From Eledone cirrhosa (Eukaryota), in contig OZ024743.1 of NCBI GenBank assembly GCA_964016885.1, forward strand, positions 67,642,001 through 67,706,000: a stretch of DNA of 64,000 nucleotides. Reading direction: 5' to 3'. The notes beneath the pieces were generated by a model, which was given only the letters and a program-made list of their open reading frames with translations, was not told where the DNA came from and did not search any database. Below, in pieces: positions 17,271-21,275 of this stretch. The first letter of the stretch is position 1. Every line of letters starts with the position of its first letter. A program made the translations under genes and the position numbers.

Positions 17271-18200
17271 GCTATTACATCACTGACCAACTGGCAACGT
17301 CCCAGGTAATGCCAGACAAAGAATTAACCTCTCTAACGAAGACGTAGTTAATGTAGAAAGTTGTTAATGTTGGAATATATTCTAAAGTTGAGGAATAAAA
17401 ATAGATATCTCCATAATATATCGTGAACATATGCTTTATAACTGATATACACTTGATATATTTTATTTTATTACTACACTATTTTCAGCCATTAGACTGT
17501 GGCCATGCTAGGGTGCCGTTTGAAGAGGCTTTACTTAATATTATCGACACATTTCGTAAATATACTCATTGTTCTTGTTATTTACTTCTCCTATATATAT
17601 ATATATATATATATATATATATATATATATATATATATATATATATCATAAAACATGTCTATAGAATCACTAGATAAAATATATACCGTTTCCTCTCCCA
17701 ATTAGCATAATTAATCATATAAAAAATCAATTAGACCAAGCTATAAGAATAAAGGCTCCTATGAAGAAATCTCCGACAAATAACCGAAAGCAGCCCCTTC
17801 GTGGCTTATAACATGGTCTAATTGATTTTTTATATGGTTAATTATGCTAATTGGGAGAGGAAACGGTATATAGACATGTTTTATGATATATAGCTCTGAT
17901 TATTTAATTTATGACTTCTTCATTTAGCCACAACGTGACCCGTTGCAAAACATATATATATATCTATGACTTTATATATATATATATATATGTAAATCTT
18001 TATATGAAATAATCTCCCGTTAGGTTGAGATACAATATGGCTGTTTTGGGCTGCTCTTTCTAGCAATAAGCCTACCAGCCGTAAGCAACTAATCACATCC
18101 TTTCTAACCCTGACCACTGCCACGTCAGGATTCTTAGCCATTTTTGAATGTATTCTTGGCGCGATCACTTTGGAAAATTAATTGTCTAAATTTGAGCTAA

Positions 18201-18274
18201 CTCCTGATGAATCCGAAGCTCTAGATATCCCCTGTTATCGGATGTCTTAAAATACGGACGAAACCATGGTAGAG
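18201..18274 (+). ncRNA. Type I hammerhead ribozyme motif (HHR-1) with extended stem II
   Basis: ctc-CTGATGA-a-tccg..agatatcc/ggatgtct..cgga-c-GAA-ACCATGGT-A-gag: both core boxes, palindromic stem III, GUA triplet 18269-18271, 3-bp stem I; A.C mismatch at the base of stem II. Confidence 0.75.
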
Positions 18275-18556
18275 GTAAGTAAATATGTACACATTTCTTC
18301 TAGTTTATTTTACACCTAATTCTGTTTAGTTGACTGTATATCTGGTCGATTTATACATGCTGTCGGAATGTTCGATAAATACTCCGTCGTAACCGCCGCG
18401 AAGGGGCTGCTTTCGGTTATTTGTCGGAGAGTTCTTCATAGGAGCCTTTATTCTTATAGCTTGGTCTAATTGATTTTTTTATATGGTTAATTATGCTAAT
18501 TGGGAGAGGAAACGGAAGATATTTTATCTAGTGATTCTATAGACATGTTTTATGAT

Positions 18557-19939
18557 TATCTAAGGCGGGTAAAATTCCCGAGACCCATGGACGAGTTCTC
18601 TCCAGCGGTCTCTATCCCTCATTGTCGCTGCCATGTCCTGCGTCTCCAATAGACCAGTGTCTATCCTTAGGGCATCAACATACGTTAACCTTCGTCTTCC
18701 TCTTCTAGTGTGTCCATGTAGGGGCTCCCAAAGGAGCACTGAGTGCATGTCCAGCCAACCTCAGTCTCCACTGTGTCATTTTTGTGCTGAATTTTGGGAT
18801 GCTCCCATACAGCTCTGAGTTTTAAACCATCAGTGTATACTGATTAATGTTCAGAGACATCCTCAGCATTCTCGTGTAGCACCCATCCACCATCTGAGTG
18901 AGTTTCTTGGTCAGTGTCCAAGTCTCAGACCCATACAGCAGCACAGACTCCACTACAGCAATGAAGAGGCGGATTTTCAGGTCTCTACGAAGGTCCGACT
19001 TCTACAGCGATCTCAAGCTGTGGCACGCTGCCCAGGCCTTGCTGTTCCTCTCAACCACATCATCTTCCGTATTCCCAATATTTGCTCCCAAATACAGGAA
19101 GTCCTCAACCAATTCTAGCGGCTTCCCGCCTACATTAGTGATCCCCTCTGACTTCTCAACATTCTCTACCAGATATTTTGTTTTAGTCTCATTCATTCTC
19201 AGCCCAACACTCATCGACACAGTCTCAACCTCCCGCATCAAATCCTCTGCCTCCTTCACTGTATTTGTCACCAACACTATGTCGTCGGCAAACTCAGCAT
19301 CCGATACCTTTTTCGCCTTAACTCTCCTGCTCTGAGCCGGTGCCACAGTAAAGCCAGAGTCCTGGTGTTTCTCCAGTGCATCAGACGTGATGAAGAGGTG
19401 TGATTTTGATGATATCATCCTGGGGTTCTGTAACGGGGCACTGGAGAAAGGAGTTGCCCCGAATCAGTGGAGGATCAGTAACATCGTCCCAGTGCCAAAG
19501 AAGGGAGATCTCTCTAACACCAACAACTACAGGGGGATCTCACTGACGTCACTTGTGGCAAAGACCCTTAACAGGATGATTCTTAACAGGATGCAGCCTG
19601 AGATGGCGAAGAAGCTCAGGGACAACCAGAACGGCTTCAGAGAGGGTAGATCAACCACCAGGCACATCCTGATGCTGAGGAGGATATTAGAGGGAGCTAG
19701 AGTAAAGTTCCTTCCTGCGGTCATGGTTTTCATTGACTTTAGGAAGGCCTTTGATTCTGTGGACCGTTACTGCCTGATGAAGATCTTACAGGCTTATGGA
19801 ATCCCCAAGAAGATAGTGGACCTGATATCACTGCTCTACACCAACACCAAAGCCCAAGTCATTACACCTGATGGGATGACAGAGTTCTTTGAGATACTGG
19901 CTGCAGTGCTCCAGGGAGATACATTGGCTCCCTACCTTA
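18557..19939 (-). mobile_element. 5'-truncated, 5'-inverted RTE-clade LINE with TTATGAT target-site duplication
   Basis: 3' part on - (18557-19386: AEFADDIVLV, FLYLG, HGHTRRGRRRLTYVD..RDRWR); upstream RT part on + (19387-19939: NYRGISLTS, QNGFREGRST, FIDFRKAFDSV, LQGDTLAPYL); TTATGAT at 18550-18556 and 19940-19946. Confidence 0.92.
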
Positions 19940-20322
19940 TTATGATATATAGCTCTGATTATTTAATTTATTAATTCTTCATTGAGCCACCACGTGAGCC
20001 GTTGGAAAACACATATATATCTTTGACTTTATATATATATATGTAAACCTTTATATATATATATATATATATATATATATATTTATATATATATAGTTGT
20101 AATAAAATGAAAACGAAATTTCATTTCTCACTCTTAGTACGGCACTTACTTAAATGTAAGTATGTATGTATACGTACATACATATATGTATACAGACGTA
20201 CAGTAGCATGCATATATATATATATATATATATATATATATATATATATATATATATATATATATATATACATACAGGTATACATACATATATGTACGTT
20301 CAACCATCTGGCAGAAGGGTAT

Positions 20323-20365
20323 ACGGTGCTGATGATAGCTAACAAGCTTGAAACTAGTACATCGT
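20323..20365 (+). ncRNA. Minimal type I hammerhead ribozyme motif (HHR-2a)
   Basis: acggtg-CTGATGA-t-agct-aaca-agct-t-GAA-ACTAGT-A-catcgt: 6-bp stem I, 4-bp stem II, palindromic stem III, GUA triplet 20357-20359. Confidence 0.82.
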
Positions 20366-20862
20366 TCCTGTGTTAGTGTTGAACAAAAAGGTGACGTGGT
20401 TGCCTTAACAACGTACAGCATAAATTCAGGCTGTTCAGTTTGTTTACAAACGAACAAAGCGGGCGCTATAATAAGCGTCCGCTAAACTGATACGTACATA
20501 TATGTATGTATACCTGTATGTATATATATATATATATATATATATATTTTTATATATATATATATATATATATATATATATATATATATATATATATATA
20601 TATATATATATATATATATATATGCATGCTACTGTACGTCTGTATACATATATGTATGTACGTATACATACATACTTACATTTAAGTAAGTGCCGTACTA
20701 AGAGTGAGAAATGAAATTTCGTTTTCATTTCATTACAACTCATCGTTTTCGGTGCGCCTGACCGATTTAACTCACTCGATATGCAAATTAGGCTGCTCAG
20801 CCGTTAATTTTCATAAGGAAAGTATATACTTTCGAACGTTCAACCATCTGGCAGAAGGGTAT

Positions 20863-20905
20863 ACGGTGCTGATGATAGCTAACAAGCTTGAAACTAGTAC
20901 ATCGT
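20863..20905 (+). ncRNA. Minimal type I hammerhead ribozyme motif (HHR-2b), identical to HHR-2a
   Basis: Same sequence 540 bp downstream; GUA at 20897-20899. Confidence 0.82.
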
Positions 20906-21275
20906 TCCTGTGTCAGTGTTGAACAAAAAGGTGACGTGGTTGCCTTAACACCGTACGGCATAAATTCAGGCTGTTCAGTTTGTTTATAAACGAACAAAGC
21001 GGGCGCTATAATAAGCGTCCGCTAAACTGATACGTACATATATGTATGTATACCTGTATGTATATATATATATATATATATATATATATATATATATATA
21101 TATATGCATGCTACTGTACGTCTGTATACATATATGTATGTACGTATACATACATACTTACATTTATATATATATATATATATATATATATATATATATA
21201 TATATATCGAAGCAAGTGTGGTAACACCAGAGTACTCGATTCTTTGGGTAGTAGAGTGGGTAATAGCAAAATAGA

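Follow-up and report, generated by a model that had tools for sequence, protein, structure and literature searches.

We describe here two non-coding repeat elements that stand side by side in a TA microsatellite of the Eledone cirrhosa genome, at positions ~17645-20056 (family 1) and 20095-21166 (family 2) of a 64,000-nucleotide stretch of contig OZ024743.1 (GenBank assembly GCA_964016885.1, positions 67,642,001 to 67,706,000 of the forward strand), hereafter the window. Both elements follow one plan, in which an inverted partial copy is followed by one whole unit and one partial unit, and all three type I hammerhead ribozyme motifs with a palindromic stem III in the window lie inside them. 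We consider it probable that both are non-autonomous retrozymes of the kind that is devoid of long terminal repeats (non-LTR), that Penelope elements mobilised them, and that they entered one TA microsatellite as two separate insertions.

In both elements the inverted piece is joined head to head with the direct unit, the direct and inverted copies end at different internal positions, and the outer ends (four of four) blend into the TA target over 1-7 nt. Neither element has poly(A) or a discernible target duplication, unlike the neighbouring long interspersed nuclear element (LINE) described below, and ARAGORN detected no tRNA head. A partial tandem with an adjacent head-to-head inverted copy in a microsatellite is the arrangement by which insertions of the Penelope-like element (PLE) type are recognised, and both elements display it. 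With TA masked, the two families are not similar to each other (local score 21 against a shuffle mean of 21.7; 64 of 100 shuffles scored as high). Thus the sequence-only reading, an earlier inspection of the letters that had proposed two adjacent and unrelated hammerhead families flanked by (TA)n, each starting with an inverted partial copy, was confirmed on all of these counts (Table 1). The tandem monomers that it described have periods of 648-668 and 540 nt, but family 1 amounts to merely 1.3 units once the LINE is set aside and family 2 to 1.6.

Table 1. Features of the two elements and of the dispersed repeat in the window (positions count from the first letter of the window)
Feature	Position	Strand	Remark
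(TA)n left flank	17592-17646		likely family 1 target site
Family 1 inverted partial copy	17645-17805	-	96% to 18395-18556, 162 nt
Family 1 whole unit	17805-18452	+	648 nt, GC 36%
Family 1 type I hammerhead motif	18201-18274	+	core from 18204, predicted cut after 18271
Family 1 second unit, part before LINE	18453-18556	+	ends in target duplication copy 1 (18550-18556)
LINE reverse transcriptase fragment, 5'-truncated and 5'-inverted	18557-19939		later insertion
Target duplication copy 2 and remainder of family 1 second unit	19940-20056	+	duplication copy 19940-19946; ends in TA
(TA)n separating family 1 from family 2	20056-20094		run as mapped 20030-20095
Family 2 inverted partial copy	20095-20299	-	source ~20487-20740
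Family 2 whole unit	20296-20835	+	540 nt, GC 31%
Family 2 hammerhead motif 1	20323-20365	+	predicted cut after 20359
Family 2 partial second unit	20836-21166	+	ends in small predicted stem-loop just past TA hairpin
Family 2 hammerhead motif 2	20863-20905	+	same sequence as motif 1; cut predicted after 20899
(TA)n right flank of family 2	21167-21207
SINE-like pieces	6489-6635, 7400-7540, 22094-22234, 23180-23330, 23691-23821, 54478-54599		plus shorter ones

In family 2, the inverted copy and the direct unit overlap in a 4-nt microhomology, ACGT (20296-20299), which is the palindrome centre in both sources. A (TA)n/ATAC tract at ~20487-20686 of the unit is predicted to fold as one long hairpin. 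The direct copies are identical in 201 of 205 columns (4 differ; ~1-2% apart). With these nearly identical copies and two intact motifs, family 2 is likely the younger insertion.

The family 1 element is more worn. Of 193 positions aligned between its direct copies, 12 differ (~6%), the whole unit is without 20 nt that the other two copies have, which gives a unit size of 648-668 nt, and a TA-rich tract lies inside it at 17952-18005. The junction between inverted and direct copies has ~1 nt of microhomology, the outer end of the inverted copy blends into the TA run over ~7 nt, and no further family 1 copy is present within the window. The second unit was split by the LINE fragment, which makes up 1,383 of family 1's 2,415-nt span (57%) and is flanked by a 7-nt target duplication. 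Each half of the fragment matches RVT_1. Compared with its closest relative, an 893-amino-acid protein with 89% identity, residues 415-604 are encoded on the plus strand (19378-19947) and residues 613-892 on the minus strand (19379-18566), with ~8 codons missing at the inversion junction. The only reverse transcriptase (RT) in the family 1 span, overlooked by the sequence-only reading, belongs to this LINE. We considered it as a Penelope partner and rejected it as a later insertion: many of its relatives among those listed carry PF14529 or PF03372, and therefore its open reading frame (ORF) is not Penelope-like. We take these domains to be apurinic-type endonucleases and the fragment to belong to the RTE clade. 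Because its copies are ~6% apart, a LINE has hit it and its one hammerhead is weakened, family 1 is likely the older insertion; alternatively, the divergence may reflect a more mixed template. At 17645-20056 it is likely a dead relic.

We searched both strands of the window for hammerheads with a descriptor that allowed a mismatch at 10.1-11.1 and was written after the motifs had been seen. The cores start at 18204 in family 1 and at 20329 and 20869 in family 2. The motif with a palindromic stem III occurred in none of 1000 shuffles of the region and was also missing from all 200 shuffles of the non-satellite part of the window (44.7 kb). The family 2 motif has a 6-bp stem I, a U.U at 10.1-11.1, a 4-bp stem II with a 4-nt loop and the stem III palindrome ACUAGU. 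Its two copies are 540 nt apart, and the predicted cuts would release a 540-nt RNA. The family 1 motif has a 49-nt stem II arm (4 bp, a 7x7 internal loop and an 8-bp helix), an A.C mismatch at 10.1-11.1, a weak proximal stem I of only 3 bp and the stem III palindrome ACCAUGGU. The earlier assignment of type I hammerheads with palindromic stem III therefore stands for three motifs, but family 1 has a single, partly degenerate one, as its second unit stops before the motif and is LINE-split. With one hammerhead, this copy cannot release unit-length RNA. Pattern scans of metagenomes for both hammerheads, one of them with a gap range of 20-50 that admits the 39-nt spacer, gave no matches. Rfam matches of the mir-297 type were rejected as TA/ATAC low complexity.

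Folding predictions are consistent with hammerheads that act in pairs. Neither stem III palindrome is predicted to form a hairpin alone, and as duplexes the two have predicted energies of -4.8 and -11.2 kcal/mol. The TA-free part of family 2 folds at z=-5.9 (100 shuffles). A stable, self-paired RNA is thus predicted for family 2 and, more weakly, for family 1.

To follow family 2 beyond this locus, sequencing data from 4 of the 23 listed runs (X1, X21, X4 and X7) were placed on positions 20625-21035, with 20625-20691 skipped; the placement was made for family 2 alone, and the head-to-tail join across the TA tract lies outside the covered stretch. In X1, 5,731 of 17.1 million contigs were placed, with 1544, 1863, 1818 and 506 in the identity classes 99+, 95-99, 90-95 and <90%. 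In the reduced-representation run X21, 75,689 of 12.5 million reads were placed, and in X4, which carries another organism label, 23 contigs fit over 20692-20932. Other family 2 copies are continuous over 20692-21035. Family 2 is an abundant, diverged multi-copy family, so that the single-copy case by which the sequence-only reading would have been refuted does not arise for it; the summed depth is not a copy number. No RNA data set is among the runs listed, which has no bearing on expression, and small word shares in organisms C-P were left out of the analysis. Loose ends at 20927 in X1, X7, X21 and X4 mark a second family 2 subfamily whose sequence diverges 3' of the hammerhead arm. In X7 (same organism label as X1, library kind not on record), depth peaks on the ribozyme, at 20863-20936; one hammerhead subtype prevails in this run (20866 A at 75%, against 5% in X1), and we did not use it as expression evidence.

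The variants among these copies avoid the ribozyme. Of 36 variable positions, taken from 40 of 56 rows, none falls in the 12 core and 14 stem II/III positions, compared with 36 of 313 positions elsewhere (Fisher p=0.048), in line with the earlier expectation that the core would be conserved among copies. Within the core span, variation is confined to two positions, the free N7 and one base of loop II. In stem I, 20866 changes to A (G.U to A-U) or to U, and its partner 20902 changes to G. If on the same molecule, 20866 U and 20902 G would read as G.U to U.G; the two sites were not phased, and their frequencies track in X21 (52%/50%; 5%/6%) and in X4. Outside the ribozyme stems, 11 of 200 positions predicted to be paired are variable compared with 23 of 101 unpaired ones (p=1.7e-5), and 7 of the 11 variable paired positions still pair. 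This avoidance of predicted paired sites is the strongest sign in our data and suggests selection on family 2 as an RNA.

The same data also contain joints. Eleven of the 15 joints listed (from a total of 85) connect opposite strands: one has both sides at AATT, six have one side at 20967-20976 near AATT and are ambiguous, and four, with 26-47 reads from 2-5 starts, lie away from AATT sites. These last four suggest inversions at other points in other family 2 copies. Piles of read ends in X21 at 20715-20718, 20786-20789, 20806 and 20966 coincide with four AATT library cut sites and have no biological meaning, and three joints with both sides at AATT sites were rejected as library cut sites.

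Neither family appears to code for a protein. The longest ATG frames in the units, of 73 and 99 amino acids, run through TA tracts, and none of the 15 stop-free frames scanned (24 are listed) belongs to an RT or GIY-YIG family. To judge from these frames, the units are probably non-coding, with low GC, and seem to hold nothing like the ORF of an autonomous, endonuclease-positive (EN+) Penelope. The earlier description of both families as non-coding thus holds for the units but fails for the family 1 span as a whole, with the LINE RT at 18557-19939.

The sequence-only reading had also proposed non-autonomous, self-cleaving elements mobilised in trans. This fits the anatomy, and we infer self-cleavage, RNA circles and mobilisation in trans as steps of the following route. 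Read-through of a tandem copy would give an RNA that carries two hammerheads. Since a single motif is unable to close its stem III, two motifs would pair through the palindrome and excise the 540-nt (or ~670-nt) unit, which a host ligase may circularise. A Penelope GIY-YIG/RT protein, acting in trans, would nick (TA)n and begin reverse transcription inside the RNA, and copying round the circle or along a multimer would yield 1.3-1.6 units. A nick in the other strand would prime a shorter second cDNA, and joining of the two cDNAs by microhomology would leave the head-to-head inverted piece. The inverted piece would be accounted for equally well by self-priming from an antisense template, as put forward in PMC3846280.

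Published work provides precedents for most of these steps. Animal non-LTR retrozymes have been defined, their circles were demonstrated in coral, mussel and axolotl, and PLEs were named as likely mobilisers (PMC7229834); retrozymes have been proposed to be non-autonomous PLE derivatives (PMC7229834; bioRxiv 10.64898/2026.07.22.740005). The hammerheads of PLEs have a palindromic helix III and act as dimers, and a circle model was put forward for PLE tandems (PMC4209133). PLE insertions consist of a partial tandem and an inverted 5'-truncated copy (PMC8557442, PMC3846280) and are biased towards (TA)n (PMC8557442), and a PLE protein has been shown to nick AT-rich DNA on both strands and to extend them, with initiation inside the RNA (PMC11167929).

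Like animal non-LTR retrozymes, the Eledone elements belong to non-coding families with GC under 45-50%, head-to-tail units and one type I hammerhead per unit; they also share the weak palindromic helix III, the highly paired predicted RNA and, for family 2, the abundance. The family 2 motif has the same U.U at the base of helix II as axolotl HHR_Amex2, which cleaves well as a dimer (PMC7229834). Units of 540 and ~668 nt are longer than those of invertebrate retrozymes (170-400 nt), yet within the 51-972 bp given for retrozymes, together with similarity to pseudo-LTRs (pLTRs), in bioRxiv 10.64898/2026.07.22.740005. What differs from animal retrozymes is the internal (TA)n hairpin in each unit, as well as the 1.3-1.6 units with a head-to-head inverted piece; the word 'inverted' is absent from the main text of PMC7229834. 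With EN+ PLEs and pLTR hammerheads the elements share the partial tandem and the adjacent inverted 5'-truncated copy (PMC4209133, PMC3846280, PMC8557442, PMC11167929), and with EN+ PLEs the junction palindromes or microhomology, (TA)n targets without clear duplication and a small palindromic helix III. Unlike EN+ PLEs, neither family has a GIY-YIG/RT ORF or remnant in the frames scanned, and compared with the minimal PLE hammerhead, the helix sizes of family 2 are canonical (I 6 bp, II 4 bp). Chlamydomonas MRC1 (PMC8557442) is similar in having non-coding units that form pLTRs, head-to-tail insertions and mobilisation in trans. Derivatives of the MRC1 type share 3'-end similarity with a known autonomous family, whereas we found no such parent for the families here, and most Chlamys are without canonical hammerheads, whereas a hammerhead is present here. 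In the supplement of PMC8557442, as searched, four motif terms were absent and a fifth matched an unrelated Naiad. In that same supplement, the consensus just before Naiad_Hcon closes with a core of hammerhead type whose stem II arm is long, the geometry of the family 1 motif, and long-arm hammerheads may be under-counted in Naiads.

The explanation that competes most closely with Penelope-mobilised retrozymes is that both elements are the ends (pLTR and tail) of 5'-truncated or gutted autonomous PLEs, arranged as a partial tandem with an inverted copy. The sequence-only reading had itself raised the caveat that they may be pLTRs of a Penelope family. On this account the monomer is a by-product of two truncated copies that share a 3' end point, and there is no self-propagating circle. 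We judge this unlikely, if far from negligible. Ordinary PLE insertions are laid out in this way (PMC3846280, PMC8557442), neither element reaches two units, and family 1 has a single hammerhead. The supplement of PMC8557442 contains a Naiad consensus that terminates in a hammerhead-like motif, with a stem II arm about as long as that of family 1. A junction private to this family 2 copy would fall, at ~20686, in the stretch that the read placement skipped; against this, the inverted copy of family 2 itself runs through the putative junction, and the predicted fold places a 5-bp hairpin over that point. Summed depth in X1 is as high at a distance of 170 nt upstream (1.4-1.7 million) as on the hammerhead itself (1.8-2.0 million), and it does not fall off steadily from a 3' end. 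Among the loose ends listed, 24 of 517, the well-supported ones look, by eye, like diverged versions of the unit or library junk and show no shared coding continuation, predicted pairing is respected along the entire 340-nt unique part of family 2, and the frames scanned gave no RT or GIY-YIG remnant. Truncated PLE ends are a weaker explanation for family 2 than for family 1. An origin as repeats of a satellite or short interspersed nuclear element (SINE) type, spread by LINEs or DNA duplication with the hammerhead as a passenger and the inversions made by LINE twin-priming, seems improbable to us. The LINE at this very locus has a 5' inversion, and so LINE machinery makes inversions here as well. 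The differing internal ends of direct and inverted copies, the presence of more than one unit, the missing poly(A), tRNA head and discernible target duplication (the LINE has one of 7 nt) and a pattern of variation in keeping with the hammerhead and the fold all speak against it. It is more improbable still that misassembly around (TA)n produced the layout and that the motifs arose by chance. Long TA runs are hard to assemble, and among the listed contig pieces none spans the full 20625-21035 stretch; on the other hand, the copies are 1-6% apart with distinct indels, a clean LINE target duplication lies inside the second unit of family 1, the shuffles are devoid of the motif, and independent DNA reads contain family 2 and show other inversions.

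Several observations weigh against the retrozyme interpretation itself. Rfam recognised no hammerhead in either family at its gathering score, a type of scan that the sequence-only reading had proposed as a check; the HH9 model gave only 18.2 and 17.6 bits on family 2 against a cut-off of 52, and family 1 gave nothing even below the cut-off. Taken alone, the hammerhead fragments have predicted folds no more stable than those of shuffled sequence (z -0.14 to 0.61). For the family 2 tandem, the predicted fold with both hammerheads formed is 10.9 kcal/mol less stable than the unconstrained minimum, and family 1 folds weakly (z -2.1 to -3.2; TA-free part z=-2.1, 60 shuffles). The test of core conservation is marginal and comes from 40 of 56 rows, the stretch 20911-20986 is nearly as invariant as the hammerhead core (1 listed site), and the unphased frequencies of 20866 U and 20902 G are discordant in X1 (10% and 35%). 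The opposite-strand joints could possibly be PCR (polymerase chain reaction) chimeras among repeats. From the literature, only 1 of 9 predicted Xenopus retrozyme dimers cleaved in vitro (bioRxiv 10.64898/2026.07.22.740005), and PLE insertion proceeds in vitro with no need for hammerhead cleavage (PMC11167929). Compared by eye with the 3' ends of two Naiad consensuses from octopus, neither family gave a match, and we identified no homologous autonomous partner element.

Other repeats share the window. Next to family 2, two short TA-flanked units (21208-21380 and 21827-21975) each terminate in a long hairpin (z -8.3 and -4.1). Their similarity to one another is weak (local score 49 against a shuffle maximum of 33), and they have no further copies within the window; they are possibly another non-autonomous family that uses the same microsatellites. 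A SINE-like unit of ~140 nt is dispersed in at least 10 pieces with 80-95% identity (Table 1) and is presumably of an octopus type. A 19.3-kb satellite with a 22-bp unit (~879 copies, 86% match) occupies 24949-44256. Many decayed copies of one non-LTR retrotransposon type, which we take to be L1/Tx1-like, lie at 8000-15000, 50700-52100 and 54900-64000, with endonuclease-like and RT frames, the longest of 796 amino acids at 60912-63302. On the minus strand at 617-2112 there is a decayed RT-bearing non-LTR fragment of a different type, with a weak RVT_1 match.

Retrozymes, their link with Penelope and the inverted layout at (TA)n have all been published, and the two elements constitute no new class. 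In Octopus vulgaris, 190 Penelope-like families make up 6.8% of the genome (PMC13282606); the text passages of that paper and a search of its supplement yielded no mention of hammerheads or retrozymes, and families 1 and 2 may already sit unnamed in an octopus Penelope library. To judge from search listings outside the subscription literature, there is no report of cephalopod retrozymes or of inverted retrozyme insertions. The case for what mobilises animal retrozymes has so far been made from their co-occurrence with candidate elements and their similarity to pLTRs (PMC7229834; 2026 preprint). The present pair of unrelated hammerhead repeats, both with the insertion signature of Penelope, supports that case from a different, structural side. 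Family 2 offers a young, abundant, two-hammerhead substrate for direct tests, and the bias of variants across its entire unit suggests selection on the RNA beyond the ribozyme alone. More tentatively, family 2 might be a circular RNA parasite, abundant and under selection for its structure, in which the (TA)n hairpin is a fossil of the target site. It might derive from two Penelope ends that landed in one microsatellite, and the insertions of both families might each record two Penelope priming events on one circle. If true, their structure would link retrozymes directly to the Penelope machinery, in a cephalopod genome.

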